From the NCBI GenBank assembly GCA_963666425.2, contig OY762825.2, positions 320,001 to 384,000 on the forward strand: a stretch of DNA of 64,000 nt, written 5' to 3'. The DNA is from Bacillota bacterium (GTDB lineage Bacteria; Bacillota; JAAYKD01). This document shows, in pieces, positions 2,084-28,857 of this stretch (the first letter of the stretch is position 1; each line of letters opens with the position of its first letter). A program made the translations under genes and the position numbers. The notes beneath the pieces were generated by a model. The model saw only the letters and a list, made by a program, of their open reading frames with translations. It ran no database searches and was not told the origin of the DNA.

Positions 2084-3028
2084 TTATTTGCGGAGCGGAT
2101 TGATCGCCCGTAAATGCGACATCGAACCATAACCGTTGATCAGAGCTGCATATTCTGTCTGATTATAGAAGGAACACTTGTTCTCCCCGTAGTATTTGGC
2201 AACCTCAATGCAGAAACGTGCGGTTTCTTCGATATCAATTTCATGAGAAGCTCCGGTAGCACAGCCTGGCACGGCAGTTTCCGTCGTGATGGCTACTCCA
2301 ACCAAAGCGGCATCGGTCACAATGGACGGCTGCAGGATGCTGTTGACATGATAGATATCATTCCCATACGGCGTGATATCCTGCATGGTGACTGGCAGCA
2401 CCTTGGCTTGCTTGCCGGTAGTCCATTCCATAATCGAAAGCAAATCTTCACTGATGCGCAGAATCCAGCCATCCTTGATCGTTGGCGTAATAGCAAAACC
2501 ACGGGCATTTAAAACTCGATTGCCTTTGGTTGTATCAACCGATAAAATGGCATCGACGGAAGTATCCACTTCATACTTGTTCATGACCGCAATATCCACA
2601 GGAGAGCCCATAAATGGTACCGGATCGTGCGGTGAAGTGGGCGAAAAAGGAGCAATATGCGTGGAGACAATCACATCGCCGGATATCGTGTCGCCATTTC
2701 TCTGCATATCAACCAGTTTCAAGGCGACCGCCATGGCTGTAATCGCACCGTCTCCATCAGAAACCAAACCGATACGTTCCGGTCTGGCTCCAACCCCGCC
2801 TAATCGTCCAATAATACCTAAAGTTGGGGCTGTCCCTCCGCTTAATTTACCATTCTTCCCTTTAATCAAGACATGGATGAAATCCGTGCTGCCTTTATCC
2901 CCAATCACAGTCAGCCAATGACACTGCTCCGCCGGTAATCCTCTGGCAATCAATAACTCTTTTACTTTTTCGCCGCTGGCAAACGAACTATCCAGCAGTT
3001 CATGTATTTCCATTACTTGCTTCAGCAT
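2084..3028 (-). CDS. DUF1177 family protein
   Basis: Motifs GIIGRLGGVGARP, LVSDGDGA, PHDPVPFMGSP, DTTKGNR, VPGCATGASH. Confidence 0.8.
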   Translation of the reverse strand: MLKQVMEIHELLDSSFASGEKVKELLIARGLPAEQCHWLTVIGDKGSTDFIHVLIKGKNGKLSGGTAPTLGIIGRLGGVGARPERIGLVSDGDGAITAMAVALKLVDMQRNGDTISGDVIVSTHIAPFSPTSPHDPVPFMGSPVDIAVMNKYEVDTSVDAILSVDTTKGNRVLNARGFAITPTIKDGWILRISEDLLSIMEWTTGKQAKVLPVTMQDITPYGNDIYHVNSILQPSIVTDAALVGVAITTETAVPGCATGASHEIDIEETARFCIEVAKYYGENKCSFYNQTEYAALINGYGSMSHLRAINPLRK

Positions 3029-9498: not shown

Positions 9499-9861
9499 CT
9501 ATAACAAGCGGATCTTTTCTATCAAACAGCGCAGAGCGGCTGTTTCCTCTTCATTCAATTTAACAGCAACTTGCTCTAAAATCAGCTGAAATTCCTTCGC
9601 GATGGTCTCGGCAGCTTGATTGCGCTGTAACAGATGCAGTACCGCTTCATGCTGTTCCAGATGTGCGACCAAACGCTGCACCTGATCGTGCACTGCCTGG
9701 CGGGAGACGGCAAACGCTGCCGCCACTTCAGCCAACGTGTAATCATCGGAATAGTACATACTGAGCATCTCCTGCTGCCTGTCTGTAAAAAGCTCAGCAT
9801 AGCAATCAATCAGCTGATTGATCGTTTCAGTTTGCTGCAGTTTGTCCTCCATAACATTCAC
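9499..9861 (-). CDS. ylxM: YlxM family HTH protein
   Basis: YYSDDYTLAEVA...VSRQAVHD HTH motif; directly upstream of ffh. Confidence 0.9.
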   Translation of the reverse strand: MNVMEDKLQQTETINQLIDCYAELFTDRQQEMLSMYYSDDYTLAEVAAAFAVSRQAVHDQVQRLVAHLEQHEAVLHLLQRNQAAETIAKEFQLILEQVAVKLNEEETAALRCLIEKIRLL

Positions 9862-9894
9862 CCGTTGCTTTTTTAGTCAACTTATTTCTTTGAC

Positions 9895-9923
9895 ATCATA
9901 GCATGCTGGAATGAGCTTGTCAA
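9895..9923 (-). promoter_or_regulatory. SigA-type promoter of the ylxM-ffh operon
   Basis: TTGACA-17 nt-TATGAT with extended TG. Confidence 0.75.
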
Positions 9924-9961
9924 GTATTTTTGTTGACAACACTATTTTTTATAAATAATGC

Positions 9962-9990
9962 TTGCCAAAGCTTGCCAATTGTGCTATATT
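9962..9990 (+). promoter_or_regulatory. SigA-type promoter of the thrS leader
   Basis: TTGCCA-17 nt-TATATT with extended TG. Confidence 0.65.
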
Positions 9991-10020
9991 ATTAAAAATC
10001 TTGATGAGGGAGATTTTCCT

Positions 10021-10080
10021 ATGATGAATTTCATTCAGTCTGCCAATACAACCACTACCCGAAAGGGCTTGCTTTTGTAG
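10021..10080 (+). CDS. Thr-rich leader peptide MMNFIQSANTTTTRKGLLL
   Basis: SD GAGGGAG at 10006-10012; ACA ACC ACT ACC at 10048-10059; TAG at 10078-10080; upstream of the attenuator and thrS. Confidence 0.8.
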   Translation: MMNFIQSANTTTTRKGLLL

Positions 10081-10147
10081 TTTGTTGCCACTGCAACCAA
10101 CGACAGAGGCTAAGTCCTCTTCGTCGTGTGGTTGCGAGGATAAAAGT

Positions 10148-10196
10148 AAACACCTTGCAAACACAAGTATTTTGTGTTGGCAGGGTGTTTTTTATT
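10148..10196 (+). terminator. Attenuator terminator upstream of thrS
   Basis: ~19-bp stem AAACACCTTGCAAACACAA/TTGTGTTGGCAGGGTGTTT followed by TTTATT. Confidence 0.85.
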
Positions 10197-10329
10197 GGAA
10201 AGGAGGTGTTTGTCCCGATGCTGAAAGGAATTTGTCTGGTAAGCCTGCTGGAATCAGATTCCCAGGGACAATTGACCGTCAACTTCTTAAAAATTCCGAT
10301 CGAAAAAAATTTAAGGAGAGACGAAAAAA

Positions 10330-11874
10330 ATGAACGAAAAAATGAATTTAGCCCATCTCTTGTCTGATGTGGTGCAAGAACTCTTCCCGGAAGCAGTCGA
10401 TTCTGTTTACAAGGAAACAGATGAAGGGTTTTACTGCGATTACGATCTGGCAAGACCATTGAATCCGCAGCGTTTCGCTGCGATCATAGGCGGCATGAAA
10501 GGAAAAAATCCTTCCGCTGTTTATGAGCTTTCACATTTTTCCGGTGTCTATCTGGATGACGATGCAGCTAAAAAAATGTTGCAGCGGATTTATGTACTGG
10601 CATTCCACAGCCAAGTAGAATTAAACAATTACAAAGCTTTGGCAGCCGAAGCCGCGTTGCATGATCACAAGCTGCTGGGGCAGCAATTAAAGCTGTTTTC
10701 CAGTTGTGATGAAGTCGGACAAGGTTTGATCCTGTGGCACCCAAATGGCGCTATGCTGCGTCATATGCTGGAGAAATTTGGGCAGGAAGCGCATCTGCTC
10801 AATGACTATCAATGGGTGTATTCACCACACATCGGGAAAGCATCACTTTGGCAAACCTCCGGCCATCTGGATTTTTATCAGGATGCAATGTATCATCCCA
10901 TTCAAATCGATCAGGAAGCTTATTACCTAAAGCCAATGAATTGCCCCTTTCACATTTGCATTTACAACAGCGAGCTGCGCTCTTACCGCGAATTGCCCAT
11001 GCGGTTGGCAGAGTATGGCACCGTTTATCGCTACGAGTTATCCGGTACATTAAGCGGACTATCCCGTGTGCGTGGCTTTACTCAGGACGATGCTCACATC
11101 ATCTGCACAAAAGAACAGATCCAAGAAGAAGTTACCCGCGCCTTAAAATTCTCACTTTATATCCTGCGCAGCTTCGGTTTCGAGCAGTTCACGGCCTATA
11201 TCGCCACAAAACCGGTCAACAAGTCCATCGGAGCCATCGCAGACTGGGAGCAAGCCATTGCGGTTTTGCAGAATTCGGTGCTTGCCTGTGGCTTAAGCTA
11301 CCAAATTGACGAAGGTGGCGGTGCCTTTTACGGGCCGAAGATCGACCTGAAGCTGAAAGATTCGCTCAACCGGGAATGGCAATGCAGCACGATCCAGTTT
11401 GATTTTAATTTACCCAGCCGCTTTGCGATGTCATATATCGCGGCGGATGGAGAAAAACATCAGCCGCTGATGGTGCACAGAGCCTTATATGGCAGTTTTG
11501 AACGATTTATCTCCCTATTGATCGAGCATTACAAAGGTGAATTCCCCTTCTGGTTATCCCCTCTGCAATTCGGTCTGCTTTCTGTGCGGGAGACGCATAC
11601 GGCTGCCTGTCGGGCGCTGGCTGTGGTATTGAAAAAAAAGGGATTTCGGGTAGCAATCAATGCGGAAGACAGCAATCTGCGCAGCAAAATCAAAGCGTTT
11701 GAATTGAAAAAAACGCCCTATATGCTGATCATCGGCGATAAAGAGGCAGCGAATGGCACTTTCTCCGTTCGCAGCCGTCGGAATGGTGATTTAGGCGAAA
11801 TGACGGTGGAACGCTTGTGTGAGTATCTAAAAGATGAAATCGCTCAAGGGATCCCCCAGTATATCTTTGAATAA
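10330..11874 (+). CDS. thrS: Threonine--tRNA ligase, short form with degenerate editing domain
   Basis: KPMNCPFH, YRYELSG, RVRGFTQDDAH, GAFYGPKID, HRALYGSFERF and anticodon domain; only 514 aa. Confidence 0.95.
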   Translation: MNEKMNLAHLLSDVVQELFPEAVDSVYKETDEGFYCDYDLARPLNPQRFAAIIGGMKGKNPSAVYELSHFSGVYLDDDAAKKMLQRIYVLAFHSQVELNNYKALAAEAALHDHKLLGQQLKLFSSCDEVGQGLILWHPNGAMLRHMLEKFGQEAHLLNDYQWVYSPHIGKASLWQTSGHLDFYQDAMYHPIQIDQEAYYLKPMNCPFHICIYNSELRSYRELPMRLAEYGTVYRYELSGTLSGLSRVRGFTQDDAHIICTKEQIQEEVTRALKFSLYILRSFGFEQFTAYIATKPVNKSIGAIADWEQAIAVLQNSVLACGLSYQIDEGGGAFYGPKIDLKLKDSLNREWQCSTIQFDFNLPSRFAMSYIAADGEKHQPLMVHRALYGSFERFISLLIEHYKGEFPFWLSPLQFGLLSVRETHTAACRALAVVLKKKGFRVAINAEDSNLRSKIKAFELKKTPYMLIIGDKEAANGTFSVRSRRNGDLGEMTVERLCEYLKDEIAQGIPQYIFE

Positions 11875-17761: not shown

Positions 17762-17794
17762 TCTGTGCCAACACCCCCGTCCCCTTGGCACATT
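17762..17794. repeat. 33-bp palindromic repeat, copy 1
   Basis: TCTGTGCCAACACCCCCGTCCCCTTGGCACATT; recurs at 28969-29001. Confidence 0.85.
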
Positions 17795-20700
17795 AGATGA
17801 GATTTGATTTTTGCAACAGTTGCTGCGCAATCACTGCTACTTCTGCACGGGTAATGAAGTCCCGCGGTGCCAGTTCTGTACTGCTTCTGCCGGAGACGAT
17901 TCCTGTACTGAGACAGGCTGCCACATCCGCTTTGGCATAACCTGCAATGTCTTCGCTGTCGCGGAAACGAACAAAAAGGGTATTGACATCGTCCTGTGTC
18001 AGAATCGGATACAGTTTGGTCAACTTCATCGCAGAGCCAATCATGGTCATCGCCTGTTCGCGGCTGATTTTGTCCTGCGGTCCAAATTGGCCGTTGCTAT
18101 AACCGGCAACAATGCCATAGTTACTGGCGGTTTCAATATATCCGCTATACCAGACGCCTACTGCAACATCACTGAATCGGCTGCTGCCGATCGTCTCCTG
18201 TAAACCCAATGCCCGCACCAAAATGGCAGCAAATTCAGCTCGGCTGATCGAACGCTCCGGCTCATACTGCGTGGTGCTGACACCGCTGACAATCAATCGG
18301 GATCCCAGGTCGTTGATGGCTGCGCTTGCCCAGTGGCTGAGCGTATCCGCAAACTCCATCGGATGATAAATTACGGCATAGGTACTGTTGGTCAGACTAT
18401 TGATCTTCGCATAATATTTTCCTTCGATGACAACGATCGTGGTTGGCACGTGGCTGAAGCTGCCATCCGAATTCAGTACAATTCCCGTGGTGACTCTGGC
18501 GGGGTCGATGCCTTCCGGTATGGCGATCGTTCTCTCCACATAACCGTTGAATTTGGCAACCTCCACAGTTTTCTCACCGCTGGTGCAGGTGATTGCAAAA
18601 TCAACCGGTTCTACCACGATTTGATATTGATTTCGGCTGGCAGTGTCCCGCACGATTCTCGCTGTATCATTGGAGGAGGAAGAGATGGTAATGTTGACCT
18701 GAATGTCTTTTAATTCAATTTGCGTTCCAAATTGCTGCGATACATCGAGGATACTAATCTGATTTGCCGGCAATGTATAGGTGATATTTTCTGTCCTAAT
18801 CTGCAGGACGGCTTCTTTCTCTTCCATGGCTTTCACTGTTTGCCCATTCAGGTTGCTGACGAAGATATCCGAAGTATTCGCAAAAGGTATGGTAACAATG
18901 GCATGATTGCCTTCTTGCGCTAATAGTCCCTCCAGACGGGTGTCGTCTACTAAGATCGTCTCGACGGTTTTCTCCTCTACGGTTGTGATCGCTGAATTTC
19001 CGGCATCCTGTTTGACACCATTCACTTCAATTATCACCGGTGAAGGTGGTATTACTGCATCTTCCATATCGGTCGTAATCGATTCTGGTGTAAAGACTGC
19101 CATATTACCCGCTTCGTCTTTGACCAGAACATTGAGGTAATAGGTTGTATGGCTTCTCAAATTACTGACGGTCACTTCCGACAGATTCGCAGTCCAATCC
19201 GTGGCGACACTACCGCTGCGCATTGCTTCTGTCACAGTTGCAATCGTATCCTGTAAGCAATAGATTACCCGATATTGTAAAGTTCCTTGTGCACTGCAGC
19301 TGTCAGTGGCCGCAGTCCAAGTTAAAGCAGCGGAATTGACTGCAATCTCCCCCGTTGTAAGTGTTCCGCCGGCTCCTGTCTGCGGTGCGGTTTGGTCATG
19401 CAGCGTCAGGATACCGCTGGATGCGCTGAAGGCAACCGCATTTCCGGCAATATCCAACAGGGCCTGAGCATTGCTCGGTTTGATCTGAATGGTTTCCAGA
19501 CCGGCTGGAATCCCATTCAGTGTAATAAATACTCGTAAAACCGTTTCTTCGCCGCTAAGGTCACTGGCGCTGGCTTCCAACAAAGAATCCGCTTTTTTAA
19601 CAGAGCTGATCGCCGCCGTGAGCGCGGAGCCGTTATTTTGTGCGAAAACAAGATTCAATTCAGCAGGACTCACCAGCCTGGTTAACGTGACCGGACCAAA
19701 GATCCCTTCGGAGAAAGTCAGGTCAACAAAGGAATTGTCTGTGCTTAAAACAGCAGCCGTGATCGATGGCAAAATGGTGTCAATGAAAATCCCATCGGTA
19801 GCTGCGCTGTTGTTCAGGGTTAAAATCGCATCATTACCTGCTAAATCCTTGATACTGGCACCGTTTAAGGTAATCGAAGCTGTTAACGCAAGGCCATCGG
19901 CATCATTTTCTCCTGACGCAACAGTATAAACAAATCTTAAAGCAGACGAACCGCTGCCAGAGAGATAAGCTGTATCGGCCATACTATTACCAACAATCAC
20001 TCCCAGGATTGGGTTGCTGCCATTTGGAACAAAGATGGGTTCTGAAAAATCTACGATGAATTCCAACTCATCAGCCGCGATATAGTATCCATTTGCCGGT
20101 ACGCTGACACTGGTAATGTAGGGTGCTATCGCATCCAACAAGATTGCCGCCGTGCTGCTGACGTTGTGCAGACGAAGATAGGCCGGATTACCAACCGTAT
20201 CGTGAATGGATGAGCCAATGATTGTGATCTCCGGAGCCAACAGAATACCATCGCTGTCAGAATCACCGGCAGAGACCGTATAACGGAACAACAGCGTATT
20301 CGTGTTGCTGCCATTGACGTAATTTGCCTCTACTGTTCTGGAGTCAAGGGTCACTGTTAAAAATGGCTGTTCTCCTGAAATAAGGATGAAATCACCGACA
20401 TGAACGGTCTCGGAGAACTGCACATAAAAGTCCAGGTTCTCCCCTGTTTTGTAGGTCTTATTCGGGGGCAGTGTCACAGCAGTTACGACCGGTGCGATAC
20501 CGTCGATCAGGATCCCATCTGTGTTGCCTGCATTTTGTAGGGAAAGATTGGCCGGATTTCCTGCTGCATCTTTCAGGCTTGCACCTGATGTTGTCAGAGC
20601 AGCGGCCAAGCGGATCCCGTCCGAGTCAAAATCCCCTTCAGCAACCGTATAACGGAAGACAAGAGATTCCGTTCCGCTGCCATTAACATATTCTGCGTTA

Positions 20701-23700
20701 ACGGGTGCAGCAGTAATGGTCAAGCCTAATAACAATGAGGAATTCAAAGAATCCAACAAGGATTCCAATTCAACCGGTTCCGAAAACACAACCGTGAATT
20801 CAAGCAAGTCGCTAATTCCATAACTGCCATTCAGAGGTAGGATCAGACTGACAATATTCGGTGCAATGCCATCAATCAGAACACCGGTTGAAACTGGAAT
20901 ATTGCTGATTGCATTCACGGCATCATTACCTGCCAGATCTTTGATACTGCAGCCGTTCACTGAAAAATCGGAGTCAATGTCGATCCCGTCATCGTCGAAA
21001 TCTCCGGAAGCAACCAGATAGGCAAAATTCAAAGCCGTGGAATTGCTGCCAGTCGTGAATTCAGCCCGGACTACTTGATTACCGATCGTCAATGTCAAAT
21101 AGGGTTTCATGCTGAGACCCTGCGTTAAGTCTTCCACTTTGACAGTTTCTGAGAAATTGACAGTAAACGTCAAGACTGATCCTGCTTTATAATTGCTATT
21201 GACCGGTATCACGAGTGAAGTGACAAACGGCAGAACACCATCCACCCTGACTGCCGTGGTAGATGCCGCTTGATTGATCGTCAAGTTTGCGTGATTTCCC
21301 GCCGCGTCATATAGAAGATAAGTTCCGTTTATGATTGCGCTGGCCAGCACAATTCCATCGGTATCGAGATCACCCTCGCAAATCGTGTAGCCAAACAACA
21401 AGGCATTGCTGCCACTGCCGCTGAGATACTGCGCTTTCTGCTCCGCAGATCCGATTGTCAGGCTCAGGTATGGTTTTGTTTCCGATACTTGCAGCAGATC
21501 TTCCACAGTGATTGTTTCCGTGAAAGTAACCGTAAAGATTAGTGTCTCACCAATACAGTAAGTGTCGTCAAGCGGCACGCTGAGCGAAAGAACGGCAGGC
21601 GCGACTGCATCGACAGTCACGAAACTCGTACTGGTCATACCATGCAGGGTCAGCTCAGCCGGATTGCCGGCAAGATCACTGATCCCACTGCCTGCCGCTG
21701 CGATTGCTGCCGCATAGGCTATACCGTCTGTATCCAGATCATTTTCCTCAATGGTATATCGGAAAAGCAAGCTTGAGGAGCCGCTGCCGCTCGCATAATT
21801 GGCCTCCGCTTGTCTGCCGCCAATCGTCAAAAGCATATAGGGGGTGTTTGCTTCGATTTTGACCAGTTCTGAGAAGCGAACCATAAAGTCGAGTGTCTGA
21901 CCGGCTGTATAAACGCCATCGGCAGGAACAGACACACTGCTAACCGTTGGTGTGATGGCGTCTACCAAAACAGCTGTTGTGCTGCCGATATGATTCAGCG
22001 TCAGCGAGGCTGGATTGCCGGCCATATCCTGGATGGTTGTACTGATTGTAGAGATTGCATTCGCGAGCTGAATCCCATCGGTATCCTGCTCACCCGCAGC
22101 CACGGTATATCGGAAAGTTAAATTCTCTGTATTAATACCATCCAGGAAGCTTGCCAGCACCGGAGTGCTGCCAATGGTTAAACCAAGATACGCTGTACGA
22201 GTTACATACGGCAATTCTATTAAACTGATCGGTTCCGAGAAATGAACTGTAAAGATCAGGCTTTCACCGGTAATATAAGTATCTGGATCTGGCACGCTGA
22301 CGCCGATGATCACAGGGATGACTGCATCGACTTTGATGCCGACAGTTGGAGCAATTGCATTCAGCGTAAGGCTTGCAGCATTTCCTGCTGCATCTTTGAG
22401 ATTCTCGCCGACAGAGCGCAGTGCAGCTGCCAAAGCAATGCCATCTGTATCCAGCTGACCCGCTGTAACGGTATAATTAAACTGTAAAGCAGTCGTTCCG
22501 CTGCCGGAGAGATAAGCTGCATCGACTGTGCTTTCACCGACAGTGACGTTTAATACAAGGCTGCTTTCATTCGGCAGCAAGACAGGTTCCGAAAAATTGA
22601 CGGTAAAGCGCAGAGATTGCCCGATGATATAAATGCCATCGGCCGGAACATGAACAGACACGACCACTGGTTTGACTGCATCAACAAAAACTCCCGAAGT
22701 AGATGCAATTCCGGTCAGAGCAAGCTCGGCATCATTTCCGGCAGCGTCTTTCAGCGCAGAGCCAAGATTGAGCGCAAGCAAACCGACTGTGATACCGTCG
22801 GTATCCATCTGATTCTCCTGCACAATAGATGCAAAATTCAAAACAGTAGTTCCGCTGCCGGATGTATAGTCTGCGTTGACAGAACTGCCGCCGATGATCA
22901 GCTCCAACTTGAGACCGCTTGCTTCTGACAGCCAAACGATTTTAGAAAACTGGATGCTGAAATTCAAACTTTCACCGGCAAGATAGGTATCTGCGGCCGG
23001 CACACTGACACTCGTTACCTGCGGCAGAACTGCATCGACCAGAACAGCGGCTGTGTCACCCACTGAACTTAACGTCAAATCCGCTTCATTTGTCGCTAAA
23101 TCGCAAATCTTACTGCTTACAGCATCAATCGGTGAAAGGACGGTAATGCCGTCACTGTCAAAATCGTTCCTGACAATCGTATAAGAAAATACAAGAGCAT
23201 TCGTATTGCTGCCGCTGCGATATTCCGCCTCTACGGTATTACTGCCTATCCTGAGTGGAAGATAGGCTTGACTGACGCTTCCGCCCAACAGACTGGTCAC
23301 AGCGACCGGTTCCGAAAAATGAACGGTAAAGAGCAGCGTTTCTGCCAGCTTGTAAGTTTTGGCAGCAGGAACGGTAACCTGAGTTATTACTGGCCGCACC
23401 GCGTCCACCAGGACGGAGGCAGTAGATTCAAGCGGCAGATTCGGATTGATTGTATTACCGGCAGCATCAAAAAAATCATAGGTTAGTTTATTTAATGCGC
23501 CGGCAACGACGATTCCATCCGGATCCAGGTCGTTTTCTGCAATGGTATAACGGAATAAAAGCGCACTGCTGCCGCTGCCGCTGAGATAATCGGCTTTCAC
23601 TGTCGAACTTTCGAGAGTGAGTTCGAGGTAAGGATTACCCCCTAAATTCGGGGATGGATTATTCAGGAAGACGTCTTCCGAGCAGTTGAGGATGAAATCG

Positions 23701-26700
23701 AGTTGGCTGCCGATGCTATAAACTCCTGCAACGGGTAAACTGAGCGAGCTGACGGTTGGCACAATCGCATCCACATAAATCAGGTTCGTGTTAATGACTT
23801 CGTTCAGCACCCGGCTGGCTTCATTGCCGGCAGCATCGAAGAGACTTTCTCCCGTACCGCTGATCAGTGTGCCCAAGCCAATACTGTCCGTGTCCGTATC
23901 ACCAGACAAAACGGTATAACGGAATAAGATCGCATTGCTGCCGCTGCCGCTGAGATAGTTGGCATGAACAATGGATTGACCGATCGTTAGGATTAGGTGC
24001 AGCGGATCGGAGTCCGGTCGGGTTTCTGTTAGGGTGACATTTTCAGAAAAATACACCGTAAAATCCAGCGTTTCTCCCATCCGATAGGTATCTGCAGCAG
24101 GCACAGTCACACTGGTGATGGACGCTGCCACTGCATCGACGGTCACCAAACTCGTATTGCCCATGCCGTGCAGGGTCAGCTCAGCCGGATTGCCGGCAAG
24201 GTCTGTCAGCCAGCTTCCCGCCGTTGCAATCAGCGGTTCACAGCTGATCCCATCCATGTCGAGATCATTCTGCAGCACAGTATAACGGAAAAGCAGGTTT
24301 GGAGAACCGCTGCCGCTGCTATAATTTACTTGTACTTGCCTGCCGCCAATCGTCAGCAGTAAATAGGGATTATTCGTGCTAACCGATTCCGAAAACACCA
24401 CCGTAAAGTCGAGTGTTTGACCGGTTGTATAAACACCATTGGCAGGAACAGCTACACTGCTAACCGTTGGGATTATGGCGTCTACTAAAACAGCTGTCGT
24501 ACTACCAACGTTATTCAGTGTCAGCAACGCTTGATTGTTAGCAGCGTCCTGAATTGCAGCGCCCGCCAAGTGAATGGCAGTCGCTAGTTCTACGCCGTTA
24601 TCATCTGCATCATCGGCTGCAATGGTGTAAGTGAAAGTAAGGTTTTCCGAACCGCTGCCACTAAGGTAAGATACTTGCACGGTTGTAGAACCGATTGATA
24701 GGCTGAGATAAGCCTGACTGTCTTGATCTGCCAAAACAAGATTGACAGCTTCCGAGAAGTTCACGATAAAGGAAAGCCTGTTGCCAATAATGTAAGTATC
24801 CGGACTCGGTACCGTGACACTGTTGACCACAGGAGCGACTGCATCCACTTGGACCCCGGCAGTGGAGGCGATTGAATTCAGCGTCAGCAGCGCAGCATTG
24901 CCTGCGGAATCCGTGATATTTTCACCGATTGAGGAAAGGGAGGTAATAACAATCCCATCCGTGTCAAGCTGACCTTCTAAGACGGTATATATGAACTGCA
25001 AAGAAGACGTCGCGCTGCCGGAGGAATAGGCTGCATTCACCATGCTGCCGCCAATGTTGATTTCTAAAGCGGAGTTACTTCCATTCACCACCGCAACATT
25101 CTCAGAAAAATTCACGTTGAAAGAAAGGGTTGCTCCGGTACGGTAAGTCGCTGCAGCCGGTACGTTAACGGAAAGAACAGTCGGTGCTTGCTGATCGACG
25201 GTATAGATTTCTCCCGAGGTAAATGCAGCAGCTGCAATCGCATTGCCTGCGCTGTCACAGATACCGGTGCCGCCCGCATTCAGATCCAGACGCAAACTGC
25301 CGCTGCCGGACACGGAAGAAAGCGTGACATCATAAATCGCTCCGCTTACGGAAGATACAGAGATGATGCTGGCGCTGACTGTTCCACTCGTGACAAGTGC
25401 GAAATCGTTGGTATCCACACCGGTAACAATCTTACTGAAGGTCACACGGTAAACCAGATTGGAAGCATTGGTCAATGACCCTAGAGGCTGTTTGCGCAGG
25501 ATGGAAGCAACTGCAGGTGCTGTGTCATCATTAATGATTACTGTTATTACCTGCTGATCGCCGGACTCAATACCGTTTAATATTGCAGAGATATCGATCA
25601 GAATCGTCTCGTTCTCTTCCACCAAGCCGTCATCGGTTGAGGTAATCGTAAACCCGCCTTCTGTCATGCCGGCAGAAATAACAAGAGATGCTGCTGCGGT
25701 ATAATCGGTATCACGTGTTGCTGTTCCGCTGTAGCTGAATGAAACAGTGGTATCTTGGCTGTAGGCGGCAGACAGCGCCGCAGTGACGGTTGCCGTACCG
25801 CTGCTTTCCATTATTAACGAATTTTTGATGGATAATGTCACTGTCGGTATGGTAGGATTCCATTGAGCATAGAGCGTTGCATTACCGAAAACAAGATAAT
25901 CAGAACCTACAATATAATTTGTTCCCGAACCGTTGCTGAGCGTATTCCAGCCGCCAAATTCCGCGCCTGATTTTGCCAACTCACCGGAATTACCGGCAAC
26001 AGCAATCGTCAATCCGGATGGATAAAATCCAGTATCGATCGGAGCCGAACCGGTGGTGTTCAGATTACCGTCGTAAGTGATCCGATATAAGTTTGTGATG
26101 ACCGGAGGCGTGAAAGCAAGGATGGGGAAACCAAAATTCTTTAGACTGAGATCAGCGTTCCAGGTTGTGCTGCCGTGATTCAGTGTGGTCAAGAATGTAT
26201 TGCTCTGTAATTCAGCAACGGTTTGCGGGATGGAATCCCCAGTTAATTTTCCTGCCTGACTGGAACCGACTCCTTTTGCTGCTAAAACTGTTGCATTACG
26301 AACGTGCGCTGCTTGGCTATTATGATAGCTTCGGACGATCGTGCCACCATCGCTGTAACCAATCAGACCACCTAAGTATTCCGCTACGCTGCAGGTCACA
26401 TTACCTGTAGCATAACAAGCTGTGATGGTTGTAGAAGGTACACCTGCGCCATCAATGCCAAGGTATCCGATCAAACCGCCGGCAGAAGGATATTCTCCTC
26501 CGTTTGCGATTACACTGCTTGTTGAATAACAATCCGTGATCGTGCCGCTAATCTGCGCCATGCCGAGCAATCCACCTGCGCTTGCATCTGTACCACCTTT
26601 GATACTGCCGGACGAAGAACAATTGTTGATCGTACTATAGGCAAAGGAACCCGCTATACCGCCGACATAGGTATAGTTATCCGCACTGGAAATATAACCC

Positions 26701-28673
26701 GTCGTAAAACAATTGGAAATATGGCTTGTGATCCCGATATAACCGCTGACTGCTCCTGCCAAACCACCAACCGAAGCGCTATTATAACCGGAATAAATTG
26801 AAACATTCGCTAAACCAAGATTCTGGAGAGTGCCACCATAAATATAACCAAATAAACCAGCATTACCAAATGTTGTGTTAGGACTCGTGGATGTGCCAAT
26901 TGCTAAGTTAGTGATCATGTGATTGTTGCCATCAAAAACGCCATCAAAAAAAATCAGATTGCTGTTACTTGTGGCTATGGGTATCCATTGAATTTGCGCC
27001 AGATCAAGATTCGCCATTAATTTATACTGACAGCTGCGATAGGTCGCATTTGAATTGTTCAACAAATCAGAAAGATAAGCCAGCTGTTCCGCATTGCCAA
27101 TCAAATAGGGAGAAGCCACAGAACCATCGCCAGCGGCGAAGGTTGCTGCCTTCGATCCATCCCAAGTATCAGTAGCTGCATATACCGTTGCAGTAAAACT
27201 CTTAGTCGCAGTAGTGGAACCATCGCTGACCAGAATGGCAAAAGTATCACTGCCGCAATAACCTGCTGCCGGTGTATAAGAAATCATACCGCCTGGCGAA
27301 ATGTCCGCCGAACCGGTAGCTGCGGTTGCTGCAAAAAAGGATAAGCTGCCATGCGCAGGAGCGGATTGCTGTGACCAAGTCAAGCTTTGGCTCGCGTCGG
27401 TATCGCTGGCATGCAAATAGGGTTTGAGATCGAACGCCGATTCGCTGGCAAAGACGGTCACCGTTTTCACGGCGCTGCTATAGGTAGGTGTCGTATTCGA
27501 AATGTAGCCGACACCGATCCCAGTCAACATCGGGTATCCCTGATTGACATTGCCGCTGTCTTTCTGCCAGACATTTGAGCCGGTATTGGTGTTTAAAAGC
27601 TGATAAAAAGCATCACTCTGCATTTCAGTGCTGCTCTTTGCGAATGGTGCACTCGAACTGTTGTTCGTACCCACTCCAACGGCAATGACAGTGCTATTCC
27701 AGTAGCTTGTATTGGTTACTCCGGAAACCATAAAACCAACAAATCCGCCTACTTTGGTGGCTAACCCAGCAGCAGCGCTGACATTGCCGGTTGCGTAACA
27801 ATTAGTTATGATGGCATTTGTCTTGCCAACACTGCCCCAATAGCCGATCAAACCGCCAGCCATAGCGGATCCTGTACAGTTCACCGTACCCAACGCATAA
27901 CAATTAGTCACAGCAGCAGCAGTGTCATTGTTATTGCGCCCAATCAAACCGCCGGCTTGAGTGTATAGTGTTGTTGATGTGAGATCAACTGCAGTGCTGC
28001 CGGCACCAGTGATATCGACAACAGTATAAGATGAGGTTACTGTTGCAGGGTTAACATGCCCAATCAATCCACCGATATAGCTGTTGTCTGCCAAACTGCT
28101 GATCGTTCCGGTCGCGTAACAATTGCTGACTGTTCCGTTTATATACCCAACTAGACAGCCAATTCTGCTGCCAACAGTTGAATAATTCACATAAATAGCT
28201 GCATTCACTACACCTATATTGCGGATAGACGCGGTGTTCTGCGTAAAGCCAGTATAACCGAACAAGCCGTTGAATTTCAGTGTGGTTACATAAGAAGACG
28301 AAGTCCCGATCGCAAGATTACTTACTTTATGATTCTGACCGTCAAAATTGCCGTAAAAATCCTTTGTCGCTGTTCCAATCGGAGTCCATTGCAAGTGATT
28401 CAGATCAATATCGGCGGTAAGCTGATAATATGCATTCTGATAAGCTGCATTCCCACCACTGACTAAGGTAGCCAAATACGCCAACTGCTCTCCGGTGGCA
28501 ATTTGATAAGGCTCGCCCACTGTTCCCGTTCCACCGGAAAATGAAGCGGCGACGCTGCCATCCCATACATCCGTTGCAGCTGATACTGTAGGTAATAAAT
28601 TGGCATTTAAACCCCAGAAAAGAAAAACAGATAAAAGTAAGATCAGAACTTTGCTGGATAAATGGTTTCTCAT
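17793..28673 (-). CDS. Giant SLH-anchored surface protein / putative adhesin (~3,626 aa)
   Basis: Signal peptide; two GLUG-type regions (WDGS..F.GG.G....PY.I); Listeria-Bacteroides repeat; Calx-beta-like domain; 15 tandem ~120-aa Ig-like repeats; FN3-like domain; three SLH motifs (ISRAE, ISREQ, ITRAE). Confidence 0.9.
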   Translation of the reverse strand: MRNHLSSKVLILLLSVFLFWGLNANLLPTVSAATDVWDGSVAASFSGGTGTVGEPYQIATGEQLAYLATLVSGGNAAYQNAYYQLTADIDLNHLQWTPIGTATKDFYGNFDGQNHKVSNLAIGTSSSYVTTLKFNGLFGYTGFTQNTASIRNIGVVNAAIYVNYSTVGSRIGCLVGYINGTVSNCYATGTISSLADNSYIGGLIGHVNPATVTSSYTVVDITGAGSTAVDLTSTTLYTQAGGLIGRNNNDTAAAVTNCYALGTVNCTGSAMAGGLIGYWGSVGKTNAIITNCYATGNVSAAAGLATKVGGFVGFMVSGVTNTSYWNSTVIAVGVGTNNSSSAPFAKSSTEMQSDAFYQLLNTNTGSNVWQKDSGNVNQGYPMLTGIGVGYISNTTPTYSSAVKTVTVFASESAFDLKPYLHASDTDASQSLTWSQQSAPAHGSLSFFAATAATGSADISPGGMISYTPAAGYCGSDTFAILVSDGSTTATKSFTATVYAATDTWDGSKAATFAAGDGSVASPYLIGNAEQLAYLSDLLNNSNATYRSCQYKLMANLDLAQIQWIPIATSNSNLIFFDGVFDGNNHMITNLAIGTSTSPNTTFGNAGLFGYIYGGTLQNLGLANVSIYSGYNSASVGGLAGAVSGYIGITSHISNCFTTGYISSADNYTYVGGIAGSFAYSTINNCSSSGSIKGGTDASAGGLLGMAQISGTITDCYSTSSVIANGGEYPSAGGLIGYLGIDGAGVPSTTITACYATGNVTCSVAEYLGGLIGYSDGGTIVRSYHNSQAAHVRNATVLAAKGVGSSQAGKLTGDSIPQTVAELQSNTFLTTLNHGSTTWNADLSLKNFGFPILAFTPPVITNLYRITYDGNLNTTGSAPIDTGFYPSGLTIAVAGNSGELAKSGAEFGGWNTLSNGSGTNYIVGSDYLVFGNATLYAQWNPTIPTVTLSIKNSLIMESSGTATVTAALSAAYSQDTTVSFSYSGTATRDTDYTAAASLVISAGMTEGGFTITSTDDGLVEENETILIDISAILNGIESGDQQVITVIINDDTAPAVASILRKQPLGSLTNASNLVYRVTFSKIVTGVDTNDFALVTSGTVSASIISVSSVSGAIYDVTLSSVSGSGSLRLDLNAGGTGICDSAGNAIAAAAFTSGEIYTVDQQAPTVLSVNVPAAATYRTGATLSFNVNFSENVAVVNGSNSALEINIGGSMVNAAYSSGSATSSLQFIYTVLEGQLDTDGIVITSLSSIGENITDSAGNAALLTLNSIASTAGVQVDAVAPVVNSVTVPSPDTYIIGNRLSFIVNFSEAVNLVLADQDSQAYLSLSIGSTTVQVSYLSGSGSENLTFTYTIAADDADDNGVELATAIHLAGAAIQDAANNQALLTLNNVGSTTAVLVDAIIPTVSSVAVPANGVYTTGQTLDFTVVFSESVSTNNPYLLLTIGGRQVQVNYSSGSGSPNLLFRYTVLQNDLDMDGISCEPLIATAGSWLTDLAGNPAELTLHGMGNTSLVTVDAVAASITSVTVPAADTYRMGETLDFTVYFSENVTLTETRPDSDPLHLILTIGQSIVHANYLSGSGSNAILFRYTVLSGDTDTDSIGLGTLISGTGESLFDAAGNEASRVLNEVINTNLIYVDAIVPTVSSLSLPVAGVYSIGSQLDFILNCSEDVFLNNPSPNLGGNPYLELTLESSTVKADYLSGSGSSALLFRYTIAENDLDPDGIVVAGALNKLTYDFFDAAGNTINPNLPLESTASVLVDAVRPVITQVTVPAAKTYKLAETLLFTVHFSEPVAVTSLLGGSVSQAYLPLRIGSNTVEAEYRSGSNTNALVFSYTIVRNDFDSDGITVLSPIDAVSSKICDLATNEADLTLSSVGDTAAVLVDAVLPQVTSVSVPAADTYLAGESLNFSIQFSKIVWLSEASGLKLELIIGGSSVNADYTSGSGTTVLNFASIVQENQMDTDGITVGLLALNLGSALKDAAGNDAELALTGIASTSGVFVDAVKPVVVSVHVPADGIYIIGQSLRFTVNFSEPVLLPNESSLVLNVTVGESTVDAAYLSGSGTTALQFNYTVTAGQLDTDGIALAAALRSVGENLKDAAGNAASLTLNAIAPTVGIKVDAVIPVIIGVSVPDPDTYITGESLIFTVHFSEPISLIELPYVTRTAYLGLTIGSTPVLASFLDGINTENLTFRYTVAAGEQDTDGIQLANAISTISTTIQDMAGNPASLTLNHIGSTTAVLVDAITPTVSSVSVPADGVYTAGQTLDFMVRFSELVKIEANTPYMLLTIGGRQAEANYASGSGSSSLLFRYTIEENDLDTDGIAYAAAIAAAGSGISDLAGNPAELTLHGMTSTSFVTVDAVAPAVLSLSVPLDDTYCIGETLIFTVTFTETITVEDLLQVSETKPYLSLTIGSAEQKAQYLSGSGSNALLFGYTICEGDLDTDGIVLASAIINGTYLLYDAAGNHANLTINQAASTTAVRVDGVLPFVTSLVIPVNSNYKAGSVLTFTVNFSETVKVEDLTQGLSMKPYLTLTIGNQVVRAEFTTGSNSTALNFAYLVASGDFDDDGIDIDSDFSVNGCSIKDLAGNDAVNAISNIPVSTGVLIDGIAPNIVSLILPLNGSYGISDLLEFTVVFSEPVELESLLDSLNSSLLLGLTITAAPVNAEYVNGSGTESLVFRYTVAEGDFDSDGIRLAAALTTSGASLKDAAGNPANLSLQNAGNTDGILIDGIAPVVTAVTLPPNKTYKTGENLDFYVQFSETVHVGDFILISGEQPFLTVTLDSRTVEANYVNGSNTNTLLFRYTVSAGDSDSDGILLAPEITIIGSSIHDTVGNPAYLRLHNVSSTAAILLDAIAPYITSVSVPANGYYIAADELEFIVDFSEPIFVPNGSNPILGVIVGNSMADTAYLSGSGSSALRFVYTVASGENDADGLALTASITLNGASIKDLAGNDAILTLNNSAATDGIFIDTILPSITAAVLSTDNSFVDLTFSEGIFGPVTLTRLVSPAELNLVFAQNNGSALTAAISSVKKADSLLEASASDLSGEETVLRVFITLNGIPAGLETIQIKPSNAQALLDIAGNAVAFSASSGILTLHDQTAPQTGAGGTLTTGEIAVNSAALTWTAATDSCSAQGTLQYRVIYCLQDTIATVTEAMRSGSVATDWTANLSEVTVSNLRSHTTYYLNVLVKDEAGNMAVFTPESITTDMEDAVIPPSPVIIEVNGVKQDAGNSAITTVEEKTVETILVDDTRLEGLLAQEGNHAIVTIPFANTSDIFVSNLNGQTVKAMEEKEAVLQIRTENITYTLPANQISILDVSQQFGTQIELKDIQVNITISSSSNDTARIVRDTASRNQYQIVVEPVDFAITCTSGEKTVEVAKFNGYVERTIAIPEGIDPARVTTGIVLNSDGSFSHVPTTIVVIEGKYYAKINSLTNSTYAVIYHPMEFADTLSHWASAAINDLGSRLIVSGVSTTQYEPERSISRAEFAAILVRALGLQETIGSSRFSDVAVGVWYSGYIETASNYGIVAGYSNGQFGPQDKISREQAMTMIGSAMKLTKLYPILTQDDVNTLFVRFRDSEDIAGYAKADVAACLSTGIVSGRSSTELAPRDFITRAEVAVIAQQLLQKSNLI
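19782..25196 (-). repeat. 15 tandem ~120-aa Ig-like coding repeats
   Basis: Unit D.(V/I).P.V.SV.VP...Y..G..L.F.V.FSE.V ... Y.SGSG...L.F.YT....D.D.DGI ... D.AGN.A. Confidence 0.9.
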
Positions 28674-28857
28674 ATTGCTTCGCTCCTTATTCTTCAATTG
28701 CTTTAAACTCCAAGGGCAGATTCTTCAGCTGATCATATTTAATTCAAAACAACAAGAACAATTAACCCTAAAATCTCAACTAGCTTTATTCTTAATTCTA
28801 CGAATACAGAAATAATCCTTGTTAAAAAATCTAAATACAAAAATATATTTCAAATAA

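Follow-up and report, generated by a model that had tools for sequence, protein, structure and literature searches.

Aminoacyl-tRNA synthetase genes of the Bacillota are taken to sense the charging of their tRNA via T-boxes. Leader-peptide attenuation of synthetases is known from the pheM leader of Escherichia coli pheST and from the Trp-codon leader of the indolmycin-resistant tryptophanyl-tRNA synthetase (TrpRS) of Streptomyces, and the threonine leader thrL of the Proteobacteria also contains Ile codons. One survey reported leader peptides for histidine, placed upstream of hisS paralogues and hisZ in bacilli, as the first 'regular' leader peptides of the Firmicutes (Naville & Gautheret 2010, PMC2965389). 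A second, inducible threonyl-tRNA synthetase (ThrRS) with impaired proofreading, T2, stands beside an accurate housekeeping enzyme in Anabaena (Rubio et al. 2015, PMC4787780). The locus described here lies in a 64,000-nt stretch of a Bacillota genome (GCA_963666425.2, contig OY762825.2, positions 320,001 to 384,000; hereafter the window), where the gene for an accessory, short ThrRS is preceded by a leader RNA with a small open reading frame (ORF) rich in Thr codons. Judged from sequence comparison and computed folds, this leader is very probably a Thr-specific, ribosome-mediated transcription attenuator, and the ThrRS that it controls has no working editing domain.

The mechanism would be of a textbook kind, and the sequence family, a set of Thr leaders from Bacillota, appears to be undescribed; literature searches, with subscription journals outside their coverage, found no description of a Thr leader before thrS. 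The features that mark a leader-peptide attenuator are present, namely an AUG-initiated ORF with a Shine-Dalgarno (SD) sequence, a cluster of Thr codons, a terminator and an antiterminator that depends on the ribosome in silico (Table 1). With E. coli thrL (RF00506) the leader shares the short Thr-rich peptide and the mutually exclusive antiterminator and terminator, and one of its members precedes asd. Unlike thrL, it belongs to the Bacillota, uses Thr only, mostly has a synthetase as its target and gives no sequence or structure match; it also has an extra decoy helix (segments 2 and 3), and its regulatory codons lie upstream of segment 1 rather than inside it. As at pheM and the Streptomyces TrpRS gene, a synthetase gene would be attenuated via codons of its own amino acid, but the amino acid, phylum and RNA are different, and the gene in question is an editing-less second copy beside a T-box-controlled housekeeping gene. 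Like a T-box (RF00230), the leader would report on the charging of tRNA-Thr through readthrough of a terminator, in the same gene family and the same genomes; unlike a T-box, to which it shows no match, it would do so via the ribosome and not by direct binding of tRNA. The His leaders are likewise Firmicutes attenuators before synthetase paralogues where T-boxes are usual, but they concern histidine and are unrelated in sequence, and the accessible sections of that survey name threonyl-tRNA synthetase once (for E. coli) and thrS never (PMC2965389).

Table 1. Features of the leader, the second regulatory element and the accessory thrS gene (coordinates of the window)
Feature	Position	Strand	Basis or remark
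Sigma-70-type promoter	TTGCCA 9962-9967, 17-nt spacer, TG-extended TATATT 9985-9990	+	10/12 matches
SD of leader ORF 1, GAGGGAG	10006-10012	+	read directly; 8 nt 5' of ATG at 10021
Leader peptide ORF 1, 19 codons, MMNFIQSANTTTTRKGLLL, then stop	10021-10080	+	sequence; homologous ORFs in 24/24 leaders
Thr codon run ACA ACC ACT ACC (segment T)	10048-10059	+	can pair with segment 3 at the base of the long hairpin
Segment 1, 5' strand of the 1:2 hairpin, holds the leader stop codon	10065-10088	+	consensus fold
Segment 2, partner of segment 1 or, via its 5' part GCAACCAACGAC, of segment 3	10093-10117	+	conserved 2:3 pairing
Segment 3 (GTCGTGTGGTTGCGAGG), pivot strand, complementary to T, segment 2 and the terminator 5' arm	10123-10139	+	pairing tests
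Segment 4, terminator 5' arm; 10153-10164 with segment 3 forms the antiterminator	10148-10164	+	7-bp core conserved
Segment 5, terminator 3' arm and T6 tract	10174-10193	+	folds
Second SD, AAAGGAGGTG	10199-10208	+	conserved in 20/20 second elements
Helix P1, 10205-10216 with 10265-10277, encloses uORF2 start and an inner hairpin	10205-10277	+	duplex energies
uORF2, 49 codons, in-frame Thr codon ACC at 10275-10277	10218-10367	+	overlaps the thrS start in the window
SD-sequestering hairpin, anti-SD CTTCTTAAA 10283-10291 with thrS SD TTTAAGGAG 10310-10318	10283-10318	+	covarying strands
Accessory short ThrRS, 514 amino acids	10330-11874	+	TIGR00418; Pfam tRNA-synt_2b, HGTP_anticodon

An initial annotation, made from the letters of the window alone, had pointed to a promoter, an SD sequence and a 19-codon ORF with four consecutive Thr codons, and all of these are there, position for position. 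Transcription would start near 9997; in homologous leaders, TGGTATAAT-type -10 boxes are found about 35 nt 5' of the leader AUG. The leader is more than a chance arrangement because the whole of it, Thr codons included, recurs at 23 other loci, which gives a total of 24 homologous leaders in 23 genomes. In every one of the 24, Thr codons (between two and eight) stand in frame with the AUG. Among the 22 leaders first tabulated, 19 have runs of four to six and two (L169 and L171, peptide ATTTG) have runs of three; L189 has seven Thr codons, several of which alternate with Asn and Ser. L226, one of the two leaders added later, reads T-A-T-T-M-T. The N-terminal parts of the peptides vary in both sequence and length, and the stop codon follows zero to six codons past the Thr run. 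In each leader examined it falls within segment 1, at one of three sites (UAGGGC, UUUGUAG or UUUGA).

The second line of evidence is the conserved fold. The 351-nt leader of the window folds with z = -6.6, and none of 100 shuffles does equally well. RNAalifold, applied to five and to 11 sequences, gives a single long hairpin, in which the Thr-codon strand T and segment 1 pair with segments 2 and 3, followed by the terminator. In a MAFFT alignment of 11 leaders 95.0% of the cells pair in this consensus and 14 pairs are changed on both sides, a level reached by none of 500 shuffles, with slid controls at 36-51%. A model-fitted alignment of 21 leaders, which is biased towards the covariance model and excludes L189 by an E-value cut, gives 92.3% of cells paired and double-sided changes at 20 pairs, which likewise none of 500 shuffles reaches. 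Helices 2-4, on the side of segment 1, are paired in 91-96% of cells (nine pairs with both sides changed). The terminator helix, over the 21 leaders, is paired in 93.8%, with 11 of its 13 pairs changed on both sides. For the helix between T and segment 3 the figure is 87-91% with no covariation at all, because the T strand is fixed by coding.

The terminator and the middle hairpin (10093-10135) of the initial annotation are also present. The former, at 10148-10193, has a stem of about 15 bp and a folding energy of -20.3 kcal/mol, followed by T6; a simple terminator scan with loop and stem rules missed it, and the folds recover it. The latter is the pairing of segments 2 and 3, which is conserved in 93.8% of cells with three compensatory pairs (a level that six of 500 shuffles reach). 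The conserved antiterminator consists of segment 3 (10123-10139) paired with 10153-10164. About 97% of cells are paired in its 7-bp core and 80% over all 11 pairs, the outer part being out of register in the alignment; in each of 11 leaders the energy of the corresponding hairpin lies between -10 and -16.6 kcal/mol. Two other pairings had been proposed as the switch. The first, 10063-10078 with 10140-10156 (-11.1 kcal/mol), and the second, 10040-10051 with 10172-10183 (11 pairs, -17.0 kcal/mol), do exist in the window, but neither is conserved: only 58.4% and 36.8% of cells pair, and across 11 leaders they do no better than shuffled or slid controls.

Segment 3 is rich in G and U and, as a pivot, has three possible partners, T, segment 2 and segment 4. 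Duplex energies were compared, sequence by sequence, with those of 200 shuffles of segment 3 in 20 leaders (L165 has no segment 3, and L189 is unaligned). The duplex of segments 2 and 3 has a mean of -19.4 kcal/mol and is significant (p<=0.05) in 18 of the 20. A subfamily of five leaders (L166, L187, L188, L189 and L226) departs from the rest in both segment 3 (GUCGUUGGU...) and the terminator arm (...ACCGACGAC or CAACGA), yet the two are still complementary; segment 2 copies the terminator arm. Alternative antiterminators are unsupported, as the pairing of segment 4 with segment 2, segment 1 or T beats 95% of shuffles in only 4, 1 and 3 of the 20 leaders, respectively.

Taken together, these helices suggest the following switch. 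In untranslated RNA the Thr codons and segment 1 would pair with segments 2 and 3 in one long hairpin, so that segments 4 and 5 form the terminator. A ribosome stalled at the first Thr codons would cover T while segment 1 holds segment 2, and segment 3, left without a partner, would take segment 4, giving readthrough. A ribosome that has moved on to the stop codon would cover segment 1, segment 2 would capture segment 3, and the terminator would form. The spare ThrRS would in this way be switched on when charged tRNA-Thr is short. This direction agrees with folds in which the transcript ends short of the terminator 3' arm and a ribosome masks positions -15 to +12 relative to the A-site codon. 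Sequestration was measured as the free energy that the ensemble gains when the terminator 5' arm is paired; averaged over 20 leaders, it amounts to -8.9 kcal/mol with the ribosome at the first Thr codon, -9.0 at the second and -6.4 at the last, and to -3.9 at the stop codon and -4.5 without a ribosome. In 19 of 20 leaders the value at the first Thr codon is stronger than that at the stop codon by over 1 kcal/mol, and in 17 of 20 it is stronger than that of the ribosome-free state. The proposal of the initial annotation, a Thr leader and terminator switch on a ThrRS gene, without a T-box, in which stalling allows readthrough, is strongly supported by comparison: the homologous leaders collected keep their Thr codons in 24 of 24 cases, their helices covary (20 pairs), one copy stands before asd, and the masked folds have an early Thr stall stabilising the antiterminator of segments 3 and 4 in 19 of 20 leaders.

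The same folds bear on an inverse logic, in which stalling at the later Thr codons would cover segment 1, so that segment 2 captures segment 3, the terminator forms and a shortage of Thr lowers expression. The fall in sequestration of the terminator arm from the first to the last Thr codon (from a mean of -8.9 to -6.4 kcal/mol) and the standing of the duplex of segments 2 and 3 as the best-supported alternative helix would fit such a scheme. Sequestration at the last Thr codon is still stronger than at the stop codon, however, and it would be physiologically senseless to shut off ThrRS and asd when Thr-tRNA is scarce, which makes this logic hardly credible.

A different question is whether the leader senses threonine by some other route. 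The initial annotation had seen no T-box, and indeed no Rfam family, T-box RF00230 and Thr_leader RF00506 included, matches at E<=10 within 9850-10400. This negative result is meaningful because the same permissive scan recovers the T-box of the genome's second, full-length thrS (L001 929-1181; 70.9 bits, E 1.6e-15). A default scan missed that T-box because 70.9 bits falls below the Rfam 15 gathering score of 93. Scans at the gathering threshold thus miss real T-boxes in the lineage of the window.

The leader might also be a structured RNA that binds a ligand, a tRNA or a protein (e.g. ThrRS itself, cf. the E. coli thrS operator), with the ACC repeats serving as a helix strand and the ORF being incidental. 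The strand of the Thr run is complementary to segment 3, so that RNA pairing alone could favour ACC-like repeats, and ACC and ACT together account for 84% of the Thr codons in the leaders, as pairing with G would have it (54 ACC, 36 ACT, 11 ACA and 6 ACG among 107 codons, a count that includes some ORFs over-extended upstream). Against this, the AUG is in frame with the ACN repeats in all 24 leaders, at varying distances and with a stop codon zero to six codons past the run, and a purine-rich, SD-like stretch precedes the likely start in most of them (by eye, unscored). Anticodon-like triplets (GGU, UGU or CGU) are not retained in any hairpin loop, and there is no Rfam match at E<=10. An RNA of this type is quite unlikely. 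Mimicry of a tRNA anticodon as at the E. coli thrS operator was considered separately and rejected: CUGGUAA, present in the inner hairpin of the window, is not kept in relatives.

The genes downstream of the leaders point to threonine as well. In 21 of 24 cases the gene is a short thrS, as judged by N-terminal similarity and ORF length, and the L156 leader precedes the gene for aspartate-semialdehyde dehydrogenase (asd), a gene of the threonine pathway. The genome with this leader, G265, carries two copies, the complete L156 before asd and L165 before a short thrS. A general sensor of translation stress or antibiotics, of the erm/cat type, would not be expected to keep such company, nor would it explain why the Thr run is the only peptide feature common to all leaders. 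It could draw on L188 (1501-2440), where the leader precedes an NTP_transf_2 nucleotidyltransferase with a weak match to streptomycin adenylyltransferase, and on the second regulatory layer described below, which resembles SD unmasking of the erm type; on balance, with 21 of the 24 regulated genes being thrS and one asd, such a sensor is very unlikely.

Several observations weigh against a Thr-specific attenuator or limit how far it can be generalised: (i) the ribosome footprint of -15 to +12 is an assumption; (ii) for the full-length leader at equilibrium, the terminator is preferred in nearly all masked states, so that the decision has to be a kinetic one, as it is in classical attenuators; (iii) the sequences are related, so that the shuffle statistics overstate their independence; (iv) the duplex of segments 3 and 4 (mean -14.2 kcal/mol) beats its shuffles (p<=0.05) in only 11 of 20 leaders and that of T and segment 3 (mean -14.6 kcal/mol) in only eight; (v) the Thr runs are weak in L172 (T-A-T-T) and in L225 (only T-A-T), the leader most closely related to the window's cassette; (vi) L165 lacks segment 3, so that the terminator comes straight after its 1:2 hairpin, and its switch may be non-functional or operate in another way; and (vii) the L188 and L189 leaders precede genes without a link to threonine. 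At L189 (1501-3156) the gene is a PD-(D/E)XK/DEAD_2 helicase- or nuclease-like ORF, 160 nt from the leader. Before these two genes the leader may have been co-opted or orphaned.

The homologous leaders come from protein-based and RNA-based searches. A protein-based scan of species genomes yielded 13 loci. The four short-ThrRS loci with 61-64% identity all have the same leader, and they belong to two Bacillota metagenome-assembled genomes (L009 and L010), Herbinix hemicellulosilytica (L011) and a member of the Oscillospiraceae (L013). The nine distant loci (37-55% identity) encode full-length enzymes, or TGS-less ones with the HxxxH motif, and no such leader was seen by eye in the 500 nt upstream of eight of them (all but L019). 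Relatives of the leader-holding genomes, about 1,070 genomes in overlapping sets, were then searched with two covariance models, R1 and R2. Strong matches were found in 7 of 151 genomes around each of G152, G153 and G282, in 2 of 151 around G154 and in 2 of 151 around G347, the last two not being new. An even sample of the class of G153 gave 3 of 150, two of them new. Weaker matches (27-41 bits) are not counted as leaders; those inspected (L141, L159, L160, L181, L190-L192 and L196-L199) are plain terminators or repeats. In a metagenome scan with a 16-nt pattern, which proved too short, nearly all of the 118 stretches listed are chance matches, and only L054, whose leader stretch is identical to that of Herbinix L011, carries the leader.

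Around the window's own genome there was a single strong match among 151, that genome itself, and none of its 150 relatives has one. Likewise, the short thrS and its leader were not found in the five other genomes of the window's family (G001-G005), all of which have a single ThrRS, the full-length one. The leader closest to that of the window's cassette is L225, from the class sampled around Herbinix. This distribution suggests a horizontal and recent gain of the cassette, which within the family occurs in this genome only; the G+C content does not set the cassette apart.

The accessory enzyme itself is degenerate in its proofreading part, a feature that the initial annotation had not described. 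It matches TIGR00418 with 541 bits against a cut-off of 384 (model positions 126-564), and is 39% identical to the full-length ThrRS of the same genome. The alignment begins at residue 76 of the latter, and the short enzyme is therefore one without a TGS domain. Specifically, the class II core is intact and is followed by the anticodon-binding domain, while the editing domain is truncated: some 60 residues are missing from it in the alignment, among them the counterpart of DLCVGPH, and HxxxH has lost its first His. Throughout the catalytic core the protein aligns with E. coli ThrRS, including the NCP, DDAHI and HRA motifs of the zinc ligands. With 15 Thr among its 514 residues, it is not a threonine-free enzyme. 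Anabaena T2 differs in that it keeps HxxxH and DxCRGPH and is induced by low zinc (PMC4787780), while the enzyme described here has lost DxCxGPH and the first His and stands behind a Thr leader.

A full-length ThrRS is present in all five other holder genomes tested, and a T-box lies upstream of its gene in three of the four scanned. Threonine would thus be served by two devices in the same genomes, with a T-box upstream of the accurate thrS and a Thr leader that works via the ribosome upstream of the one without proofreading. These genomes offer a natural system for two questions, namely why two sensors are kept for one signal and when an error-prone synthetase is tolerated. The leaders add a well-conserved, covarying family of leader-peptide attenuators from Clostridia, and with Herbinix hemicellulosilytica, a named isolate, among the holders, the family is directly testable.

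Downstream of the terminator there is a second element that the initial annotation had also not covered, a unit at 10197-10330 with a second upstream ORF (uORF2) and a hairpin that sequesters the SD of thrS. The motif GAAAGGRGGTG stands directly after the U tract in 20 of the 22 leaders first tabulated, and in L225 and L226 in addition; L157 and L188 are without the second element. This second SD is near-perfect and resembles the complement of the 3' end of 16S rRNA. An AUG follows 19 nt after AAAGG in 17 of 20 second elements, and in L225 too. In L166, L187 and L226, which lack that AUG, the frame leading to the ACC codon, read by hand, is open and in phase, and in L189 it has an early stop. 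Most relatives have a uORF2 of 14-28 codons. Its product is MLKG...QLT... in the window and M-x-(K/N)-G-...-S-K-E-R-L-T-A-x-S-S-F in most others. The distance from AUG to ACC, 42 nt in 14 leaders and 57, 18, 39 or 72 nt elsewhere, is always a multiple of three. The Leu codon before the ACC varies (CUU, CUG, CUC, UUG), and this fits a coding constraint.

Two helices form in this region. In P1, the nucleotides separating SD and AUG pair with the codons that end in ACC, at about -15 kcal/mol, and 16 of 19 sequences, with 15 distinct strand pairs, beat 95% of their shuffles. Its inner strands depend on the lineage (GTCCC/GGGAC in the window, GCTCC/GGAGC in most), and P1 was tested per sequence, MAFFT misplacing the divergent members; RNAalifold on the second element returns only a 4-bp mini-hairpin of SD and CUCC. 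The other helix hides the SD of the structural gene; of 19 homologues, 17 have this SD paired and only L156 and L158 do not. Its strands covary (CCUCUUC/GAGGAGG, CUCUCC/GGAGAG, UUUCCUUU/AAAGGAGA), and its anti-SD strand starts 2-8 nt after the ACC.

In the readthrough transcript, the strong second SD would drive translation of uORF2, whose ribosome would enter the 5' strand of the hairpin that holds the thrS SD. Translation of thrS would therefore depend on that of uORF2, as uORF2 runs into this hairpin, and a ribosome pausing at the ACC might cover exactly the anti-SD and so uncover the thrS SD. Pairing between the ACC and GGU of the SD would be another explanation for why the ACC is conserved. 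In ermC-type translational attenuation, the ribosome on a small ORF unmasks the sequestered SD of the downstream gene. The second layer would act alike, but no drug is apparent here, and what is conserved is one Thr codon in frame, 2-8 nt upstream of the anti-SD, with a putative function. A mobile, two-tier threonine sensor, in which a pivot-and-decoy attenuator is stacked on a pause of uORF2 at the ACC and the whole cassette moves between lineages, is a tentative reading, and on present evidence a doubtful one. If it is true, the editing-less ThrRS would be made only while Thr-tRNA is limiting and the mischarging enzyme would otherwise be off. The second uORF with its SD-sequestering layer may represent a new case in which transcriptional and translational control are stacked.

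The neighbours of the short thrS in the window are ylxM/ffh and the genes of an adenine deaminase, an esterase, a YgjP-like protein and a NUDIX/BNR protein. There is no biosynthetic cluster among them, and the suggestion in the initial annotation that the gene might be part of a resistance module finds no support. Further along, a 3634-amino-acid ORF (17793-28697, - strand) carries SLH, GLUG, Big_9 and Listeria-Bacteroides repeats and is a giant S-layer-anchored surface protein, not a non-ribosomal peptide synthetase. Genes for a DUF1177 protein and a MatE efflux protein (2084-3028 and 487-1941, both on the - strand) lie downstream of a row of rnhB and ribosome-biogenesis genes.

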